In this document: piece by piece, positions 3,768 through 43,644 of the stretch
Layout of the letters: every line of letters begins with the position of its first letter
Numbering within the stretch: the stretch's first letter is position 1
From: Parcubacteria group bacterium
GTDB lineage: Bacteria > Patescibacteriota > Patescibacteriia > UBA1558 > GWA2-36-10
DNA: 64,000 nt
Direction: 5' to 3'
Assembly: GCA_003104935.1 (NCBI GenBank)
Contig: PQAE01000004.1
Span: 6,835 to 70,834 of the forward strand
Notes under the pieces: model-generated
The model's input: the letters and a program-made list of their open reading frames with translations, nothing else
The model's database searches: none
Told to the model about the DNA's origin: nothing
Made by a program: the position numbers and the translations under genes

Positions 3768-4781
3768 ATGGAGGACAGAATAATCTCCGCTAGCGAACAA
3801 GATAGTGACCTCGCCTTGGATGTAACTCTGCGCCCGCAGTCACTCGGGGAGTATGTGGGCCAGTCACAGATTAAGGCTAATTTAGATATTGTTCTTCGTG
3901 CCGCCAAGGGCCGAGGCGAACCACTGGACCACGTCCTCTTATACGGACCGCCGGGTCTGGGTAAGACCACTCTGGCGCATATCATCGCCAAAGAAATGGG
4001 CGTGGGCATCAAAGTCACTTCCGGACCGGCCATATCGCGAGCCGGGGATCTGGCGGCGATTATCACCAATCTGCAAAGCGGCGATATTTTGTTCATAGAT
4101 GAGATTCACCGGCTCAATAAAACTATAGAAGAGATACTTTACCCGGCCATGGAGGATTTTGCCCTGGACATCGTCTTGGGCAAAGGCCCGGCCGCTCAGA
4201 TCCTGCGTTTGGATTTGCCTAAGTTTACCTTGATCGGCGCCACCACCAGATATAATTTGATTTCTTCACCACTGCGCGACCGTTTTGGTATCACGCACCG
4301 TCTGGATTTTTATAATCCAGAGGAGTTGGGGGAGATTATCCGCCGCTCCGCCAAAATATTAAATGTGGCTATTGATGATCAGTCCCGGGGGGAGATCGCC
4401 GGACGTAGCCGGGCCACGCCCCGCATCGCTAACCGTGTACTCAAAAGAGTGCGCGACTACGCCCAGGTCAAAGCCGACGGCAACATTGACCTGGATTTGG
4501 CTCGCCGAGCGTTGGAACTGATGTCTATAGACCAGCATGGCCTGGATGAGATTGATCGCAAATTGTTAAAAATAATGGCTCATAATTTTTCCGGCGGGCC
4601 GGTCGGTCTGGGTACCCTGGCCGCGGCTTTACAAGAGGAAGCAGGCACGATTGAGGACATTTTTGAACCCTATTTGATGCAACTGGGCTTTTTAGCCCGT
4701 ACCGGCAAGGGGCGGGTCCTGACCGATAAAGCTTATGAGTACTTGGGACTGGAAAGAAAACCGGAACAGAAGTTATTTTAG
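3768..4781 (+). CDS. ruvB: Holliday junction branch migration helicase RuvB
   Basis: 337 aa. [12 protein letters not shown]...[22 protein letters not shown] Walker A AAA+ segment and a winged-helix C-terminus typical of RuvB. Confidence 0.93.
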
Positions 4782-4786
4782 TTCAA

Positions 4787-5371
4787 ATGAAGCGATTATT
4801 ACTACACACTTGTTGCGCACCTTGCGCAATTTATGTAATAAAAAAACTGACCAAAGAATTTAGCGTCAGTATTTTTTTCTATGATCCCAATATCCATCCG
4901 CGGCGCGAGTATAATCAGCGCCGTGATGAGATGCGCGGCTATGCCCAAAAAATTGGTTTAGATTTTCAGGAAGGCGAGTATGATAGCATCCGCTGGCTAA
5001 CGGCCACGCAAGGACTGGAAAATGAGCCGGAGCGCGGCCGGCGTTGTGATGTTTGTTTTGATCTGCGGCTGGCTAAAACTGCGTCCCAGGCCAAGGCCGA
5101 GCAATATGATGTCTGGGCCACGGTGCTGACTATCAGTCCTCACAAAGATGCCGAGCGCATCAATGCTATCGGCAACCGCCTGGCCGGACAGTACGGCATT
5201 ACTTTTTTAGACGGAGACTGGAAAAAGCAAGACGGTTTTAAGACGGCCAGCCGGTTTAGCCGGGCGGAAAATTTTTACCGCCAAGATTATTGCGGTTGTC
5301 TGTATTCCAAAGCCGAGAAAGAGCGGGTCAAACATGACCGCCTCAAGATTTATGCAGATAAAATTATTTGA
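4787..5371 (+). CDS. queH: epoxyqueuosine reductase QueH (DUF208)
   Basis: N-terminal LLLHTCCAPCAIY motif and Cys pattern characteristic of QueH. Immediately upstream of queA. Confidence 0.8.
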   Translation: MKRLLLHTCCAPCAIYVIKKLTKEFSVSIFFYDPNIHPRREYNQRRDEMRGYAQKIGLDFQEGEYDSIRWLTATQGLENEPERGRRCDVCFDLRLAKTASQAKAEQYDVWATVLTISPHKDAERINAIGNRLAGQYGITFLDGDWKKQDGFKTASRFSRAENFYRQDYCGCLYSKAEKERVKHDRLKIYADKII

Positions 5372-6374
5372 TTATAAATTACCGGACGGCCGTATCGCTC
5401 AAAAGCCGGTCAGTCCACGCGATCACTCGCGGCTTTTATTTTTAAACAAAAAAAATGGACAAATTAGCCATTGTCATTTTTATGATTTGCCGGAGATTTT
5501 GCAACCCGGCGACGTCCTAGTGCTCAACGAAACTAAAGTATTTCCGGCCCGGCTGATCGGTCGCAAGAATAGCGGCGGTAAAGTGGAGTTGTTTTTACTA
5601 AAACCCTTAAAAAACGGGCTTTGGCAGTGTTTGATCGGCGGTCGGCGCTTGCGGGCCGGTCAGACCATTTTATTTGCCAAAGGACTCAAAGCAGAACTCG
5701 TTTCCGGTGTTAACACCAAGATTAAGATTGTAAAATTTAATTATAAAAACTCAAAATTGAACACATTAATTGCTCAGCTCGGGCACACACCCTTGCCACC
5801 CTATATCAAGACGCCGGACAGTCAGAAAATTCGTAAGTCATATCAAACAGTTTTTGCCAAAACCAGCGGATCAGTCGCCGCGCCGACCGCCGGACTACAC
5901 TTTACTCCGCAACTTTTAAAAAAATTAAAGAGCCAAGGAGTAAAAATTTTTAAGATAACCTTGCACGTGGGTTGGGGTACTTTTGCACCGGTGTCTGTCA
6001 GCGATATTACCAAACACCAGATTCACAGAGAATGGGTCAGTATCAGCCCGGCCGCGGCCCGGGCGCTCAATCTTTTAAAAAAACAGGGGCGGCGGATTAT
6101 TGCGGTGGGGACTACTACCACGCGCGCGCTGGAGGCCATGACTCGGAATAAAAAATTAATTTCCGGTGAGCAGGACGTCGATATTTATATCTACCCCGGC
6201 TATAAGTTTAAATTTATAAATTCTTTGATTACCAATTTTCATTTACCTCAGAGCTCCCTCTTGTTTTTAGTCTGCGCCTTAGCCGGACAAAAAAATATTT
6301 TACGCGCCTATAATATTGCCGTGCGGCGAAAATACCGTTTTTACTCTTTTGGCGACGCGATGTTTATAAACTAA
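5352..6374 (+). CDS. queA: S-adenosylmethionine:tRNA ribosyltransferase-isomerase QueA
   Basis: MQIKLFDYKLPDGRIAQKPVSPRDHSRLL matches the QueA N-terminal consensus. Start moved to the internal ATG at 5352, since the track ORF at 5334 adds a non-conserved extension. Confidence 0.9.
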   Translation: MQIKLFDYKLPDGRIAQKPVSPRDHSRLLFLNKKNGQISHCHFYDLPEILQPGDVLVLNETKVFPARLIGRKNSGGKVELFLLKPLKNGLWQCLIGGRRLRAGQTILFAKGLKAELVSGVNTKIKIVKFNYKNSKLNTLIAQLGHTPLPPYIKTPDSQKIRKSYQTVFAKTSGSVAAPTAGLHFTPQLLKKLKSQGVKIFKITLHVGWGTFAPVSVSDITKHQIHREWVSISPAAARALNLLKKQGRRIIAVGTTTTRALEAMTRNKKLISGEQDVDIYIYPGYKFKFINSLITNFHLPQSSLLFLVCALAGQKNILRAYNIAVRRKYRFYSFGDAMFIN

Positions 6375-6390
6375 TCTTTAGAGGGCAATA

Positions 6391-6668
6391 TTTTGGTAAA
6401 AGAAAATCAGGACCCCCGTATCGCGCTTAGCGCGACGGGGCAAGCCCATCAAAATATAATGTTCTCAAAAGACCCGAGTAAATCGGGTACTATAAAATTT
6501 GGTAAAAGAGAATCAGGACCCCGTAGAAAACGCATGGCTCGTTCTACGGGGCAAGCCCATCGAAATATAATGTTTTAAAAAAAGACCCGAGTAAATCGGG
6601 TATTGTAATACTCGGTAAATGAAATCAGGACCCATTTAATCGCCCCAAGTGATCAAATAAGTCCTGAT
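6391..6668. repeat. intergenic tandem repeat, ~2.5 units of 107-113 bp, each with conserved hairpins and a TATAAT box
   Basis: Unit 1 runs 6391-6497, unit 2 6498-6610, and a partial unit 3 from 6611. Shared blocks are GGTAAAAGARAATCAGGACCCCGTA, a variable CCCCGTA...TACGGGG stem-loop, CGGGGCAAGCCCATCRAAATATAATGTT, and the AGACCCGAGTAAATCGGGT hairpin. Confidence 0.7.
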
Positions 6669-6851
6669 GACTTCTGTGTTTGTACGATATTCAATTGTCG
6701 ATGATCTTGAGCGGCTTAGAGCCACAACATTTTGTTTTTTTATTTCTGTCACGCTAAGCGCGACTTTTTTGTTGTTTTGAGCCTTAAACGGTTCAAGATT
6801 CTGTGTAAAGTACCTTAGATAACTATATTATAGCATATTTTTGGGCATTAA

Positions 6852-7442
6852 TCAAGGATTTTTTTCCAAAAGCAAAATCGTCCAAGGTAGGGGCTGCTTT
6901 TTAGCTATGATTTTAAAGTAAGGAGAGACTAATTTTTCAAACTTATTTATTGACCAATGGTTAATATGTCCAGGGGTATTGCCCCAGTCGGATAGGTAAC
7001 GGCCCCGGGACATATTAAGCATCCTCCAGAGAGGTTCACGCGGCACGCTGATTAGACAATATTTTTTTGTCACGCGTTTTAACTCCGTCAAAGCCTCGGT
7101 CGGTTTTTCTAAATGTTCCAAAACTTCCAGGGCAATGACCAAATCAAAATTATTATCCGGACTATTTATCCTGTAAATCGACTCCTGACTGACGCTGACT
7201 TGAGGATTGCGATTTTTCGTTTGGGCCACCAACTCAGCTTCTATGTCTGAGGCCGACCACAACAAATCGGGTCTCATTTTTACCAAATACTCAGTGGAGA
7301 ACCCCGGACCACAGGCGAGCTCGCGGGCATTTTCAATGTCCAGATTTTTTAGGAGCAAATTTATATCAGCATAAAAATTAGCTATCAGCCGGCGGGCGAT
7401 AAAATTCGCTTGGGTATATTTTCGTGAAAAATCCGGTATCAT
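6852..7442 (-). CDS. class I SAM-dependent methyltransferase
   Basis: 196 aa. LACGPGFSTEYL glycine-rich SAM motif I and LVIALEVLEHL motif (Methyltransf_11/12-like). Confidence 0.7.
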   Translation of the reverse strand: MIPDFSRKYTQANFIARRLIANFYADINLLLKNLDIENARELACGPGFSTEYLVKMRPDLLWSASDIEAELVAQTKNRNPQVSVSQESIYRINSPDNNFDLVIALEVLEHLEKPTEALTELKRVTKKYCLISVPREPLWRMLNMSRGRYLSDWGNTPGHINHWSINKFEKLVSPYFKIIAKKQPLPWTILLLEKNP

Positions 7443-7508
7443 TTTAGTCGCTTTAATTAGTTTGTGTTTTGTGCTTTAATTATGCTAATCTTATTATATT
7501 ATAGCTAT

Positions 7509-8489
7509 ATGCAAAACACCAGCCAAAAAATTAAATTGATTATCCAGATACCTTGTTATAATGAAGCCGGGCAACTGGCTATGACCGTAGCGGAGTTACC
7601 GCGCCAAATACCCGGCGTTGATATTATAGAATATTTGGTGATTGACGACGGCAGTAGCGATCAGACAGCGGAGATCGCCCATGGATGCGGCATCCATCAC
7701 ATTGTTAAGTTTACTAAACACCTGGGTTTAGCCAGAGCTTTTATGGCCGGCATTGAGAAATCCTTGGAGCAAGGAGCAGATATTATCGTTAACACTGATG
7801 CGGACAATCAATACTTCGGAGGCGATATAGAAAAATTAGTACAGCCCATTTTAGAGGGCCGGGCGGATATGGTTGTGGGCCAGAGACCGATCGAGAATAT
7901 TGAGCATTTTTCCCGGACTAAAAAATATTTACAGCGCCTGGGCAGTTGGTTGGTCAGGCGGGTTTCCCAGACCGATATTCAGGATGCTCCCAGCGGTTTC
8001 CGCGCCTTTAGTCGCACTGCCGCCAGCCAGCTAAATATTTTTAGCGAATATTCCTATACTTTAGAAAGTATTATCCAGGCGGGACAAAACGGTTTAGCAG
8101 TGATTTCGGTGCCGATCCGGATCAACGGCGAAATCCGTCCCTCGCGTTTAGTCAAAAGTACGTTTGATTATATCAGTCAATCAGTCTTTACAATATTGCG
8201 CATTTTTGTGGCCTATCAACCATTAAAATTTTTTGTTACATTAGGCGGTGCTTCATTTATTATTGGGTTACTTATTGGCCTGCGTTTTCTGTGGTTTTAT
8301 TTTGAAAATAATGGCGCCGGTCATGTCCAGTCTTTAATTTTAGCGGCTCTGTTATTAGGTGGAGGATTTTTTCTGTGTATCGTCGGTATCTTAGCGGACA
8401 TCATCTCCGTCAACAGAAAACTTTTAGAGAAAATAGACAACCGCCTCAAGCAGGTGGAGACAAAACTTAACAAAGAAAACAATGGCTGA
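7509..8489 (+). CDS. GT2 family polyprenyl-phosphate glycosyltransferase (Dpm1/GtrB-like) with C-terminal TM helices
   Basis: KIKLIIQIPCYNEAGQL...LVIDDGSSDQT...NTDADNQY (DxD) motifs of GT2. Two C-terminal hydrophobic helices. Start set at the internal ATG (MQNTSQ); the track ORF begins at 7464. Confidence 0.8.
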   Translation: MQNTSQKIKLIIQIPCYNEAGQLAMTVAELPRQIPGVDIIEYLVIDDGSSDQTAEIAHGCGIHHIVKFTKHLGLARAFMAGIEKSLEQGADIIVNTDADNQYFGGDIEKLVQPILEGRADMVVGQRPIENIEHFSRTKKYLQRLGSWLVRRVSQTDIQDAPSGFRAFSRTAASQLNIFSEYSYTLESIIQAGQNGLAVISVPIRINGEIRPSRLVKSTFDYISQSVFTILRIFVAYQPLKFFVTLGGASFIIGLLIGLRFLWFYFENNGAGHVQSLILAALLLGGGFFLCIVGILADIISVNRKLLEKIDNRLKQVETKLNKENNG

Positions 8490-17885: not shown

Positions 17886-18350
17886 CTATTTACTTGGCAT
17901 TTTTTTAGCCCTAGTAAGTAGCTCTACTTCCAAAAAACGCCAGTAGCGGCCTCTCTTGATGGCACCCTTGATCTGGTTGGCTCGCGCCAACTTTATTATT
18001 TTCCTGGGAGAAAGTCCGGTCAGTTCGGCCGCTTGGCGACTATCGAGCAGTCGGCCGTGATTTCGGCGACACTGCTCGCGGTGGTGGGCGTTGGAAAAAT
18101 CGGTATAAAGATTGAGCAACTCTATCCGCATTTCCCCCAGATTGGCGCCGCAGTCTTCCACCAATGCCGTGAAGTTAATGGACACGGGCAGTTTTCCGCC
18201 GTGCTTGACGATCGGCACGTAGATCTCGATTATACGCATCGATTTCAGGTAGCGGTGTTGTAGAGGTCCCTTGCCTGCCAGATCCAGCAGAAAGGAAATA
18301 AATAATTCCCTTTCACTAATAGAGAGCTGGTGGACCCAGTCAAGTTTCAA
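17886..18350 (-). CDS. DNA-binding protein with C-terminal excisionase/MerR-type helix-turn-helix
   Basis: The C-terminal LLDSRQAAELTGLSPRKIIKLARANQIKGAIKRGRYWRF matches the HTH_17 excisionase-family pattern. N-terminal domain unassigned. Lies directly downstream of elp3 on the same strand. Confidence 0.45.
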   Translation of the reverse strand: MKLDWVHQLSISERELFISFLLDLAGKGPLQHRYLKSMRIIEIYVPIVKHGGKLPVSINFTALVEDCGANLGEMRIELLNLYTDFSNAHHREQCRRNHGRLLDSRQAAELTGLSPRKIIKLARANQIKGAIKRGRYWRFLEVELLTRAKKMPSK

Positions 18351-18467
18351 TTTGTCGCCTCCTCTTTGGAAAAAAAGTTCAGGTACGATATGGTCCCGAC
18401 CGACCAGATGGTTAGACGGGCTAAAACAGAAATATTAAACAGCAGTCATGCAACTTTGTCAAGAGAA

Positions 18468-20117
18468 CTACAATTTTTTTGTCAGATAAGTCCCTTCCAA
18501 ATGATAATCGAGTTTACGGTAATAGCTTCTTACTCCAATTCCGGAAATTACGGCTATCTTATGGAGATTATTTCCCAGGGTTATTTTTTCCGCCTCAGCC
18601 ATCAATTTTTTGCCCAGTCCCAAGTGCTGGGAGCGTCCGTTGGCCTCATTTTCATCTCTGATTTCATCACCGCCGGTGGGAATCATCCGTCCATACACAT
18701 GCAGTTCGCGCACCAGTGAGGCGTTCTTCAACTCGGGAAAGATATTTTCCGCCGGATTATTATTTATGCGCAGGCGCAAGAAAGCATAGACTTTGCTTCG
18801 GTCAGAATTTTCATAACTTAGAAAAAATTCCTGGCCACCTGAGGCTTCATATTTTCTGATGACTAAAATGGCCTGTTCAATTTCCTCGTTGTCGTTGCGC
18901 ACCTCGCGACAACGGAGGCACTGGCATTTTTGGCCACGTTTACTCAGTTCCTTTTGCAGATACTGCCGCAGATTGGTGATGCGATTGCCGGCCACGATAC
19001 TTTCCTGAGGTATATCACGAATTAATCGGTTTATGCGCATATAGGGCGGAACTAAAGTCTTCACTTCTAGTAATAATTCTAAAAGCTCCTTTTCGCTATA
19101 TGGTTGATAATCGCCATTTTTAAACAAATTATAGAGCTCGGCATAGGGGTTGACTATACAGGGATAAATTTTTATTTGATCGGGTTGTAAATCCGGAGAA
19201 GAAAAAACATATTTAAACATTTTCAGATCCTTGGCTGGCGTGGAGCGGGGCAAATCGGGCATATAGTGATGGTCAACTTTAAAACCGGCATCTTTAAGCA
19301 TCTTGGTCGCGGCAATACTTTGCTCGATACTATGACCGCGCTTAATGTAATCCAAAATTTTATTATCGCTATGTTGGACGCCAATCTGTACTCTGGTGGC
19401 TCCCAAACGGCGCATTTTTTTTATTTCATTTTCATTAATAAAGTCCGGACGGGTCTCCAAGGTTAGCCCGATTATTTTGTAGCGGGCATCTTCATTTATT
19501 TTTTGTTCTTTTTCCAGACTTAGTGGTTTTCTTTTTATTGTGTCAGCTCCACCAAAGGCGGACCTGCTGTGGGCGGGAAAAGTATTGGCGGCATAAAATA
19601 GGTCGCGCACAAATTCATTCTGATATTCACCAGGATAGACTGACCAGGTGCCACCGAGAATAAGCACCTCCAGTTTATCCACCTGATGGCCGTTATTTTC
19701 TAAGGCTTTTATACGCATAGTCATCTGCCGTAGGGGATCAAAGAGGTTCATCTTGGCCCGGGCAGCGGCCGGTTCATTAGATAAATAACTCTTAGGCATG
19801 TCCGGTTCGGTCGGGCAGTAAACGCATTTTCCCGGGCAGGCAAAAGGTTTGCTCAATACGGTAATGACCGAGACACCGGAAAGAGTTCGGATCGCACGTT
19901 TGGTCAGCAACCGGGAAAATCTCTGGTTTTCCTTGATTTTACCCTGATTTACCAATTGACGATAGAGAGAAATCAGTGTAGCTTTATTAAGTGGAGCGCT
20001 GTGTATTTTAGCAAAAGCCTGTCGCCAGGCGCGGGCAAAATCAAGCTCCGTGGCTCCAGGATTTTGGGCCAATTGAATTATAATTTCTTTTAATTTTTTT
20101 TCACTAATTTTTTCCAT
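18468..20117 (-). CDS. elp3: Elp3-like tRNA uridine-34 modification enzyme (radical SAM + GNAT acetyltransferase)
   Basis: The radical-SAM cluster KPFACPGKCVYCPTEPDMPKSYLSNEP matches eukaryotic Elp3 ...[25 protein letters not shown]. The C-terminal GNAT acetyl-CoA motif QHLGLGKKLMAEAEKI matches Elp3 HQGFGTLLMEEAERIA. Start taken at MEKISEKK. Confidence 0.8.
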   Translation of the reverse strand: MEKISEKKLKEIIIQLAQNPGATELDFARAWRQAFAKIHSAPLNKATLISLYRQLVNQGKIKENQRFSRLLTKRAIRTLSGVSVITVLSKPFACPGKCVYCPTEPDMPKSYLSNEPAAARAKMNLFDPLRQMTMRIKALENNGHQVDKLEVLILGGTWSVYPGEYQNEFVRDLFYAANTFPAHSRSAFGGADTIKRKPLSLEKEQKINEDARYKIIGLTLETRPDFINENEIKKMRRLGATRVQIGVQHSDNKILDYIKRGHSIEQSIAATKMLKDAGFKVDHHYMPDLPRSTPAKDLKMFKYVFSSPDLQPDQIKIYPCIVNPYAELYNLFKNGDYQPYSEKELLELLLEVKTLVPPYMRINRLIRDIPQESIVAGNRITNLRQYLQKELSKRGQKCQCLRCREVRNDNEEIEQAILVIRKYEASGGQEFFLSYENSDRSKVYAFLRLRINNNPAENIFPELKNASLVRELHVYGRMIPTGGDEIRDENEANGRSQHLGLGKKLMAEAEKITLGNNLHKIAVISGIGVRSYYRKLDYHLEGTYLTKKL

Positions 20118-20772
20118 GCCGACTTTGGACAAAGTATATGATCAGATTTCGCGGGAGTTTGCGGCCTCGCGCGTCTTGGCGTGGCCAGAGCTGTCCGTGG
20201 TTATACCATATATCCAGGATGGTTTCAAGATCTTGGATCTGGGTTGCGGTTCGGGGCGGCTACTCCATACTCTAGAGTCCAGCGGAAAAAAATTTGATTA
20301 TACTGGCGTGGATTTTAGCGAGGGGTTGGTCAGCCAAGCTAGGGTGCAATTTCCGCAACGCAACTTTATCGTGGACGATATTACGCACGTGGATTTGCCC
20401 GCGGAAAGTTATGATTTGATTTGCATGGTCGCCTCCTTTCACCATTTAAAGACCAAGGAAGAGAGAGAAAAATTATTGCGCGACGTTTTCCGCTGGCTGA
20501 GACATGACGGATACTTTTTTATGACCAATTGGAATTTATGGCAGGCTAAATACCTGAAATATTATTTGAAAAATTTTTGGCAAAAAAAAAGTTGGCGCGA
20601 TTTCTATATACCCTGGAAGAGCGGGAGCGGATCCGAAGACAAACTCTGGCGCTTTTATCACAGTTTTGGCGTAGGCGAGTTAAAAAAACTCTTAGGGCAG
20701 ACCGGCTTTGTTTGCGGCCGGCACGGAGTCTATAAAACTAAGTGGAATATAGTCTCGCTAGTTAAAGAGTGA
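20116..20772 (+). CDS. Trm9/ALKBH8-type tRNA (carboxymethyluridine34) methyltransferase-like class I SAM MTase
   Basis: VYDQISREFAASRVLAWPELSVVIPYIQDGFKILDLGCGSGRLL parallels yeast Trm9 [44 protein letters not shown]. The C-terminal LWRFYHSFGVGELKKLL parallels Trm9 KYRYYHLYREGELAE. Diverges head-to-head from elp3 with overlapping starts. Confidence 0.65.
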   Translation: MPTLDKVYDQISREFAASRVLAWPELSVVIPYIQDGFKILDLGCGSGRLLHTLESSGKKFDYTGVDFSEGLVSQARVQFPQRNFIVDDITHVDLPAESYDLICMVASFHHLKTKEEREKLLRDVFRWLRHDGYFFMTNWNLWQAKYLKYYLKNFWQKKSWRDFYIPWKSGSGSEDKLWRFYHSFGVGELKKLLGQTGFVCGRHGVYKTKWNIVSLVKE

Positions 20773-42862: not shown

Positions 42863-42950
42863 GGAGGGTTCGCATAGTGGCCTAGTGCACACGCTTGGAA
42901 AGCGTGCAACCCGCAAGGGTTCGAGAGTTCGAATCTCTCACCCTCCGCCA
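42863..42950 (+). tRNA. tRNA-Ser (anticodon GGA), type II with long variable arm, CCA encoded
   Basis: Acceptor GGAGGGT/ACCCTCC. Anticodon stem CACGC/GCGTG with loop TTGGAAA. T-arm GAGAG-TTCGAAT-CTCTC. 88 nt. Confidence 0.9.
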
Positions 42951-42965
42951 AATATATTAATGCAC

Positions 42966-43052
42966 GCCGAAGTGGTGAAATTGGTATACACGCACGGTTC
43001 AGAGCCGTGTGACCGTGAGGTCATGGAGGTTCAAATCCTCTCTTCGGCACCA
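42966..43052 (+). tRNA. tRNA-Leu (anticodon CAG), type II, CCA encoded
   Basis: Acceptor GCCGAAG/CTTCGGC. Anticodon loop TTCAGAG. Variable arm TGACCGTGAGGTCA. T-arm GGAGG-TTCAAAT-CCTCT. Confidence 0.9.
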
Positions 43053-43118
43053 AATTTCGACAAGAGTGACTTGTCGAAATTTGTCCCGAACGAAGTTGAG
43101 GGACAACGTACTAGATAA

Positions 43119-43194
43119 GGGCTGTTAGCTCAGTTGGTAGAGCGCTACATTCGCATTGTAGAGGTCGGGAGTTCGACTCTCCCACAGTCCACCA
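43119..43194 (+). tRNA. tRNA-Ala (anticodon CGC), G3:U70 identity pair present, CCA encoded
   Basis: GGGCTGT...ACAGTCC acceptor with G3-T70. Anticodon loop TTCGCAT. D-arm GCTC-AGTTGGTA-GAGC. T-arm GGGAG-TTCGACT-CTCCC. Confidence 0.9.
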
Positions 43195-43272
43195 TGGTCG
43201 CATGGCTTCCACCTTCCCCCAGACTTGATCCGGGGTTCGGTGGACAGGCAGTTTCGTAATTCTTGAATATTG

Positions 43273-43349
43273 GGGCATGTAGCTCAGTTGGTTAGAGCGC
43301 TACATTCACATTGTAGAAGTCGGAGGTTCGAGTCCTCCCATGCCCACCA
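43273..43349 (+). tRNA. tRNA-Val (anticodon CAC), CCA encoded
   Basis: Acceptor GGGCATG/CATGCCC. Anticodon loop TTCACAT. T-arm GGAGG-TTCGAGT-CCTCC. Confidence 0.9.
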
Positions 43350-43569
43350 TTTTTGAGAATCTCGCAGCGCCGAGCTATAGGCGAGGCGCGAAGACCCCGG
43401 CGCAGGCCGGGGCAGGTGCGACCACCATCCTTCGCTCCTTGTTACACTCGGAGCTACGGATGGCAGGCCATTTTACAAACAAAATTTGCCTTAACTTTTC
43501 GGGCCATTGGCCCGCCAAAGCTCAAAGGCGTAGTCGGGGGTTAGCGCAGTTTAGTGAGAGAGTTATAAT

Positions 43570-43644
43570 CGGGGTGTAGCGCAGTGGTAGCGCGCACGGT
43601 TCGGGACCGTGAGGCCGTGGGTTCAAATCCCACCACCCCGACCA
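43570..43644 (+). tRNA. tRNA-Pro (anticodon CGG), C1:G72, CCA encoded
   Basis: Acceptor CGGGGTG/CACCCCG. Anticodon loop TTCGGGA. T-arm GTGGG-TTCAAAT-CCCAC. TATAAT sits directly upstream at 43564-43569. Confidence 0.9.

Follow-up and report, generated by a model that had tools for sequence, protein, structure and literature searches.

Does a bacterial Elp3 have a Trm9-type methyltransferase of its own, such that two genes suffice for an Elongator-type modification of the tRNA wobble uridine? The question is raised by a pair of divergent genes in the chromosome of a Parcubacteria group bacterium (Patescibacteria), within a 64,000-nucleotide stretch of contig PQAE01000004.1 that we refer to as a whole as “the window”. 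One gene of the pair is elp3; the other encodes a class I S-adenosylmethionine (SAM)-dependent methyltransferase deposited as hypothetical protein C3F02_01345 (100% identical). Coordinates are given in Table 1. An earlier reading, made from the DNA letters alone (“the sequence-only reading”), had taken the two genes for an Elp3/Trm9-like module. We find support for this in the active-site residues of the methyltransferase, in Trm9 being its best solved relative, and in the linkage between the two genes. The pair is thus probably an Elongator-type, two-gene module in which Elp3 would make 5-carboxymethyluridine at position 34 (cm5U34) and the methyltransferase would convert it to 5-methoxycarbonylmethyluridine (mcm5U34).

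By its family match and catalytic motifs, the elp3 open reading frame (ORF) encodes a genuine Elp3, as had been proposed. The protein scores 537.7 bits against the NCBIfam model TIGR01211 (ELP3; cutoff, 350 bits), with residues 59–554 of the ORF, as read from its alternative TTG start, aligned to model positions 38–522. Pfam assigns it Radical_SAM and Radical_SAM_C domains. Its top relatives among solved structures are Elp3 without exception. The archaeal MinElp3 (6iaz) comes first (383 bits; E = 1.6e-113), ahead of DmcElp3 from Dehalococcoides (5l7j; 338 bits; E = 9e-100) and the eukaryotic Elp3 structures (about 295 bits; E = 6.5e-88 to 3.1e-86). Because the scores fall in this order, the protein looks prokaryotic rather than eukaryotic in origin. 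The sequence-only reading had tied the assignment to the radical-SAM cluster and the acetyl-CoA site, and both are present. It had, however, given the cysteine spacing as C-x4-C-x2-C. The cluster cysteines C94, C98, and C101, within CPGKCVYCP (residues 94–101 being CPGKCVYC), are in fact spaced C-x3-C-x2-C, a bacterial-type spacing shared with DmcElp3 and all Patescibacteria homologues; the x4 form is found in MinElp3 and the archaeal neighbor L052. The CxCxxC zinc motif described for Elp3 (PMC6367351) is present in its prokaryotic form as CQCLRC at residue 398, where both MinElp3 and DmcElp3 have CRCIRC at the aligned site. The acetyl-CoA-site residues defined in MinElp3, i.e., K150, K266, Q461, H463, and Y517 (PMC6367351), align with K148, K280, E471, H473, and Y532 of the window protein; E471, the equivalent of Q461, is also E in DmcElp3 (E386). 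The Q/RxxGxG acetyl-CoA motif appears as QHLGLGKKL at residue 497. Lastly, the protein has an N-terminal extension of ~80 amino acids (aa), with an isoelectric point (pI) of 10.8 for the first 80 residues.

The methyltransferase is not named by curated families. Pfam returns generic Methyltransf_25 and Methyltransf_11 domains (72 and 71 bits), and an NCBIfam scan yielded no model at its cutoff, with BioC at 51.8 bits (cutoff, 185), UbiE at 45.6 (cutoff, 216), the MenG/UbiE subfamily at 38.9 (cutoff, 158), and CpaM as a further weak sub-threshold match. Solved structures are more informative. In a phmmer search against all of them, the top match is Yarrowia lipolytica Trm9 (5cm2_Z; E = 7e-16; residues 18–213), with the runner-up at E = 5e-11 and RebM (3bus) at E = 1.4e-4. 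The alignment takes in both the N-terminal TR..WP and the C-terminal RYYH, so the resemblance to Trm9 at the two ends, previously picked out by eye, holds up. A profile of the 30-member family matches 5cm2_Z with E = 1.2e-25 over profile positions 20–216, nearly the full length. The AlphaFold (AF2) model has a predicted local distance difference test score (pLDDT) of 93 and a predicted template modeling score (pTM) of 0.90, and Foldseek aligns it with 5cm2_Z at E = 6.5e-15 and a template modeling score (TMt) of 0.83. The fold by itself cannot separate class I methyltransferases, and the active site is the discriminating test.

The active site of yeast Trm9 (ScTrm9) has been mapped by mutagenesis at R29, D72, H115, H116, W145, W168, R241, Y243, and N271, and by modeling at Y18 (Letoquart 2015, PMC4678810). 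Through the 5cm2_Z alignment, Y18, R29, D72, H115, and H116 correspond to Y8, R19, D66, H109, and H110 of the window methyltransferase, and W145, W168, R241, Y243, and N271 correspond to W139, W167, R179, Y181, and N211. All 10 of the 10 functionally mapped residues are therefore kept. Apart from W167, the 30-sequence family alignment shows these positions to be invariant or nearly so, with conservation of 90% or more for the substrate-binding and catalytic residues. SAM-binding motif I (LDLGCGSG) is also present, together with D66, the acidic residue that follows strand β2. Affinity to UbiE- or RebM-type enzymes had been named in advance as the outcome that would speak against Trm9; the scores and residues described here speak for Trm9 instead. 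They support the view that the methyltransferase is Trm9-like rather than generic, with a predicted activity on the cm5U34 carboxyl group. Some homologues bear the JGI names “TRM9” or “alkB homolog 8”, meaning that automated pipelines have already caught the family in part.

The two genes also belong together in other genomes. Scanning a genome collection with the family alignment yielded 80 loci, which with the window made 81 to be scored. A methyltransferase was considered signature-positive if it had at least 7 of the 10 Trm9 residues, and each locus was searched for Elp3. Elp3 was found in the locus for 33 of the 41 signature-positive methyltransferases (the window included) but for only 1 of the 40 with fewer than 7 residues (Fisher p = 6e-14). 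In that sole case (L048), a contig end cuts the methyltransferase ORF; and for at least two of the eight signature-positive loci without Elp3 (L005 and L056), the upstream sequence extends no further than about 135 nt. Where Elp3 is present in the locus, it nearly always directly adjoins the methyltransferase. Record titles place the pair in Komeili-, Kuenen-, Portnoy-, Dojka-, Gracili-, and Saccharibacteria and WWE3; in Anaerolineales, Aquidulcis, Fermentibacteria, and “Multivoraceae”; and in Pacearchaeota and Nanoarchaeota. Among DPANN archaea, it is seen in loci L052 and L078. The linkage outlasts changes of orientation, since the genes are in tandem in a Crenarchaeota metagenome-assembled genome (MAG; L022, 456–2250), with the methyltransferase first, and in a Gracilibacteria MAG (L008, 450–2652), with Elp3 first and a gap of about 10 nt. 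This adjacency across phyla independently supports the reading of the pair as an mcm5U module. All-versus-all clustering of the ORFs in 34 loci recovered Elp3 and the methyltransferase, plus antisense shadow ORFs lying within elp3, and nothing else; no third conserved gene (Trm112, Ncs6/thiolase, or Kti12) was found among them. Three of the records (L001, L003, and L006) are titled “uncultured Gammaproteobacteria bacterium”, although their Elp3 is 54–70% identical to the Parcubacteria protein; judging from this identity, the labels are probably wrong.

The arrangement extends to the genus in which bacterial Elp3 has been studied. In the genome of D. mccartyi (CP019867.1), a divergent gene for a 224-aa Methyltransf_11/25 protein lies 43 nt upstream of elp3 and carries the Trm9 signature, so the module is present beside the sole structurally studied bacterial Elp3. 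A second Dehalococcoidia-type genome has the identical divergent arrangement, with a spacer of 74 nt. DmcElp3 has been called “a rare example of bacterial Elp3s” in the literature, and a 2020 review placed bacterial Elp3 only in Dehalococcoides (PMC7663514), whereas a 2026 paper speaks of Elp3 in “numerous bacteria”. The sequence-only reading had also held bacterial Elp3 to be rare. This does not stand, since the DmcElp3 sequence, rebuilt for the search from a PDB alignment, has at least 7997 matches at E ≤ 1e-60 in environmental data. Its companion statement, that bacterial Elp3 had not been reported with a dedicated Trm9 partner, has fared better: no description of a bacterial Elp3–Trm9 pair was found in the literature on Elp3, Trm9, and MnmG in Patescibacteria, the Candidate Phyla Radiation (CPR), Chloroflexi, and Dehalococcoides (Glatt 2016, NSMB, not covered). 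What the pair adds to a known pathway is a new range of hosts and a gene arrangement that is both unusual and conserved; it extends known biology directly and involves no new chemistry.

How would such a pair work? A stand-alone Elp3 would bind the anticodon stem-loop of its substrate tRNA, aided by the basic N-terminal extension. The lysine acetyltransferase (KAT) domain would hydrolyze acetyl-CoA, SAM would be cleaved at the [4Fe-4S] cluster held by the three cysteines, and a carboxymethyl group would be added to C5 of U34. The Trm9-like methyltransferase would then use SAM to esterify the carboxyl group of cm5U34, giving mcm5U34. Family membership is the basis for assigning the first step; for the second, it is the conservation of the Trm9 active site together with the linkage of the genes.

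Several points weigh against this assignment. Neither Pfam nor NCBIfam contains a Trm9-specific model, and hence the methyltransferase passes no curated family threshold. Foldseek puts 3sm3, an uncharacterized Methanosarcina methyltransferase, level with Trm9 (5cm2_Z), and the residue equivalent to Y243 varies among distant members of the family. Archaea and yeast can also convert cm5U to 5-carbamoylmethyluridine (ncm5U), such that the end product is not certain. The 2020 review notes that there is no direct evidence for bacterial xcm5U34 derivatives (PMC7663514). Finally, eukaryotic and Haloferax Trm9 need Trm112, and none was found in the 64-kb window or the conserved neighborhood.

The last of these points leads to the first alternative, in which the methyltransferase is truly orthologous to Trm9 yet depends for its activity on forming a heterodimer with a Trm112-type zinc-knuckle protein whose gene lies elsewhere in the genome, making this a three-component module. 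The Trm9 proteins of yeast (PMC4678810) and Haloferax (PMC6144793) are insoluble or inactive without Trm112; bacterial Trm112 homologues (COG2835) exist and are suspected partners of methyltransferases; and the portion of the genome inspected amounts to 64 kb. We nonetheless regard this alternative as rather unlikely. A phmmer search of the window for a Trm112-like ORF, a weak test with E. coli YcaR as the query, gave nothing below E = 0.8, and ORF clustering in the 34 loci revealed no Trm112 gene conserved around the pair. Moreover, three of the six hydrophobic residues that Trm112 buries in YlTrm9 are charged here (V59, F78, and A110 becoming K38, D61, and D93), and these positions are mostly polar across the 30-sequence family alignment. 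The charged contact residues, together with the lack of a Trm112-like gene nearby, hint at a methyltransferase that works as a stand-alone, Trm112-independent enzyme.

In a second alternative, the two proteins act jointly but their end product is not mcm5U34; instead, they would handle another Elp3-dependent intermediate or position, or yield ncm5U or a thiolated derivative. The chemistry beyond cm5U does vary by lineage, with ncm5U in Thermoplasma and unidentified products in a Haloferax trm9 deletion strain, and the tRNA binding and in vitro activity of DmcElp3 are weak. However, the residues that are proposed to hold the cm5U carboxylate and uracil ring in place (R29, H116, R241, Y18, N271, H115, and W145 in ScTrm9) are all kept, and the genes conserved nearby in the 34 loci include neither an amidotransferase nor a thiolase, which makes a different end product improbable. 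Least credible of all, and hardly worth entertaining, is the chance placement beside elp3 of a generic methyltransferase for small molecules or proteins: the generic Pfam domains, the weak sub-threshold BioC, UbiE, and CpaM matches, and the similar Foldseek scores of many class I methyltransferases would all fit it, but the two genes stay adjacent in Patescibacteria, Chloroflexota, Fermentibacteria, and archaea despite changes in what flanks them, the protein has the N- and C-terminal motifs specific to Trm9, and it is the relatives matching in the SAM-binding core alone that have no Elp3 nearby.

The preferred reading, an mcm5U34 module, is accompanied by an unusual gene arrangement. The start codons of the two genes share a CATG, leaving no intergenic promoter region between them. 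The overlap is 2 nt if elp3 starts at its ATG (20117) and 17 nt if it starts at the alternative TTG (20132), in agreement with the ~1–17 nt on opposite strands given by the sequence-only reading. The ATG is favored by N-terminal alignment, since the window protein and that of L001 both start with MEK; the N-termini are equally short in all Patescibacteria Elp3 homologues. For the methyltransferase, the only candidates are the ATG at 20116 and a TTG at 20125, and because Y8 is conserved, a start upstream of Y8 is required. The CATG overlap recurs in L001, L013, L015, L028, and L081/L082. L028 has a second ATG 18 nt downstream that could serve as the start instead; in L081/L082, independent gene calls (4362–6002 on the minus strand and 6001–6675 on the plus strand) likewise overlap by 2 nt. 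Spacers in the 31 divergent pairs have a median of 26 nt and are ≤30 nt in 17 cases, compared to only 2 of 26 for other divergent neighbors in the same loci under the same first-ATG rule. Hence, tight spacing is not shared by divergent genes at large in these compact genomes but is particular to the Elp3–methyltransferase pair. Elsewhere in the window, another divergent ORF pair (6852–7442, minus strand, and 7464–8489, plus strand) has a spacer of about 21 nt, a figure that is uncertain because the right-hand ORF starts with GTG.

With start codons that touch or overlap, the expression of the two genes would probably be coupled, either through promoters embedded in the 5′ coding end of the partner gene or through (near-)leaderless divergent transcripts. 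A scan for consensus promoters at the junction found 9 sites, not above the 6.2 ± 2.7 expected by chance, and Rfam had no match there at E ≤ 1. TATAAT-like boxes lie 6–7 nt from the methyltransferase ATG in the homologous spacers of L021, L026, and L028, and L011 has a symmetric ATAATAT box between both ATGs. Such boxes close to the ATG, together with a near-absence of Shine–Dalgarno (SD) sequences, suggest (near-)leaderless divergent transcripts at the pair. The missing SD is not a special feature of elp3 and the methyltransferase gene, given that an SD was found for only 2 of the 51 window genes examined; the genome as a whole hints at widespread SD-independent or leaderless initiation. Upstream regions in the window are rich in A and T and often carry a TATAAT-like hexamer directly in front of the ATG (e.g., 20840 and 24085). 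A perfect palindrome, ATTATAAT, is located at 20077–20084, inside elp3 codons 12–14, with the methyltransferase ATG about 32 nt further downstream. The palindrome gives TATAAT on either strand and could be an embedded bidirectional −10 element.

A broader proposal can be made, and we offer it tentatively, as possible rather than probable. Large sections of the Patescibacteria/CPR, the Anaerolineae, and the Dehalococcoidia might decode with mcm5U34 of the eukaryotic or archaeal type, made by a minimal, Trm112-independent pair that replaces the usual bacterial MnmE/MnmG route, under a conserved, compact, bidirectional and (near-)leaderless control region with shared-CATG starts.

Table 1. Features of the window discussed in the text (positions counted from the first letter of the window)
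Feature	Position	Strand	Description
Trm9-like methyltransferase	20116..20772	+	Class I SAM-dependent methyltransferase, 218 aa; predicted cm5U34 to mcm5U34 carboxyl methylation
elp3	18468..20117	-	549 aa; radical-SAM and GNAT/KAT domains; predicted tRNA U34 carboxymethyl (cm5U) synthase
CATG junction	20115..20118	.	elp3 ATG (20117 to 20115) and methyltransferase ATG (20116-20118) overlap by 2 nt
HTH ORF	17886..18350	-	154 aa, TTG start; C-terminal helix-turn-helix (HTH) domain HTH_17 (PF12728, 35.5 bits; cutoff, 27)
RuvB, then QueH, then QueA	3768-6374	+	About 13 kb from the pair, further upstream
tRNA cluster (n = 5)	42863-43644	+	Ser-GGA, Leu-CAG, Ala-CGC, Val-CAC, Pro-CGG

The setting of the pair is one of ordinary chromosomal housekeeping genes, with FolD and serine hydroxymethyltransferase (SHMT) on one side and phosphoglucomutase, Asp/Glu racemase, and 2-hydroxyacid dehydrogenase on the other. 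GC content is even across the region, and nothing points to a mobile element. Between SHMT and elp3 lies the HTH ORF, which the sequence-only reading had described as an excisionase-type HTH gene. The HTH part of that description stands, given the HTH_17 match, but the excisionase part does not, with the “excise” model at 16.7 bits against a cutoff of 28.8; the N-terminal 100 residues have no family match. This ORF carries the sole strong SD (GAGGAGG) among the 51 window genes. It was considered as part of the module and rejected, having no homologue in the 80 related loci and being unrelated to the ORF that takes its place in the syntenic L081. Its absence from all related loci suggests a lineage-specific, possibly horizontally acquired, insertion. 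RuvB and QueH are also adjacent to each other 2–3 kb from the pair in both Dehalococcoidia loci (L083, 1101–2688; L084, 706–2327), which may be coincidence or remnant synteny. The five clustered tRNA genes all lack U34, and the window thus encodes no candidate substrate for Elp3.

A conserved, dedicated Trm9-type partner bears on the question of what bacterial Elp3 makes in vivo. The partner predicts the nucleoside to look for, mcm5U34, with D. mccartyi and cultured Saccharibacteria as candidate organisms. It also widens the range of Trm9 well past eukaryotes, Halobacteriales, and Sulfolobales, and supplies structural and enzymatic work with a small Trm9 that may not need Trm112. Hundreds of proteins listed as “class I SAM-dependent methyltransferase” or “hypothetical” could be re-annotated, and anyone studying promoters that lie inside coding sequence would have a compact example in the conserved overlap of the divergent start codons.

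Among known systems, the eukaryotic pathway, i.e., Elongator with Trm9–Trm112 or ALKBH8–TRMT112, resembles the window pair in its two catalytic families, in the predicted order of their action, and in the active-site residues of Elp3 and Trm9. It differs in that the window pair has neither the Elp1, Elp2, and Elp4–6 subunits nor an AlkB or RRM domain. The search of the window and the conserved neighborhood found no Trm112 for it either, and part of the patch that would contact Trm112 is charged. The window Elp3 has the C-x3-C-x2-C spacing rather than the longer eukaryotic loop, and possesses the CxCxxC zinc motif that eukaryotic Elp3 lacks. The two window genes are, in addition, physically paired.

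Archaeal systems offer a further comparison. The Elp3 proteins of Haloferax (HVO_2888) and Sulfolobus solfataricus are stand-alone with a basic N-terminal extension, like the window protein, whose closest solved relative is MinElp3. In Haloferax, the HvoTrm9–Trm112 complex (HVO_1032) makes mcm5U (PMC6144793), and clustering of the Elp3 and Trm9 genes was reported in Sulfolobus in 2008 (PMC2584109). Archaeal Trm9 orthologues have been thought to be restricted to Sulfolobales and Halobacteriales (PMC5372719). The window differs from Haloferax in having a bacterial host; Haloferax Trm9 needs Trm112, and its gene does not adjoin elp3.

Within bacteria, DmcElp3 (PDB 5L7J, 5L7L, and 6IA6) shares with the window protein its stand-alone nature, the CPGKC(I/V)YCP spacing, and the E at the Q461-equivalent position. 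Its locus likewise contains a divergent Trm9-signature methyltransferase gene, a partner not mentioned in the DmcElp3 literature examined. DmcElp3 has no N-terminal extension and binds tRNA weakly, whereas the window Elp3 has the basic extension described above; and the spacers of 43–74 nt in Dehalococcoidia contrast with the 2-nt overlap in the window. Finally, the MnmE/MnmG (with MnmC) xm5U34 pathway acts on the same target, C5 of the wobble U34, in the same class of tRNAs, but its enzymes, a GTPase and an FAD/folate enzyme, are unrelated to Elp3 and Trm9, and its product is 5-carboxymethylaminomethyluridine (cmnm5U) or 5-methylaminomethyluridine (mnm5U).

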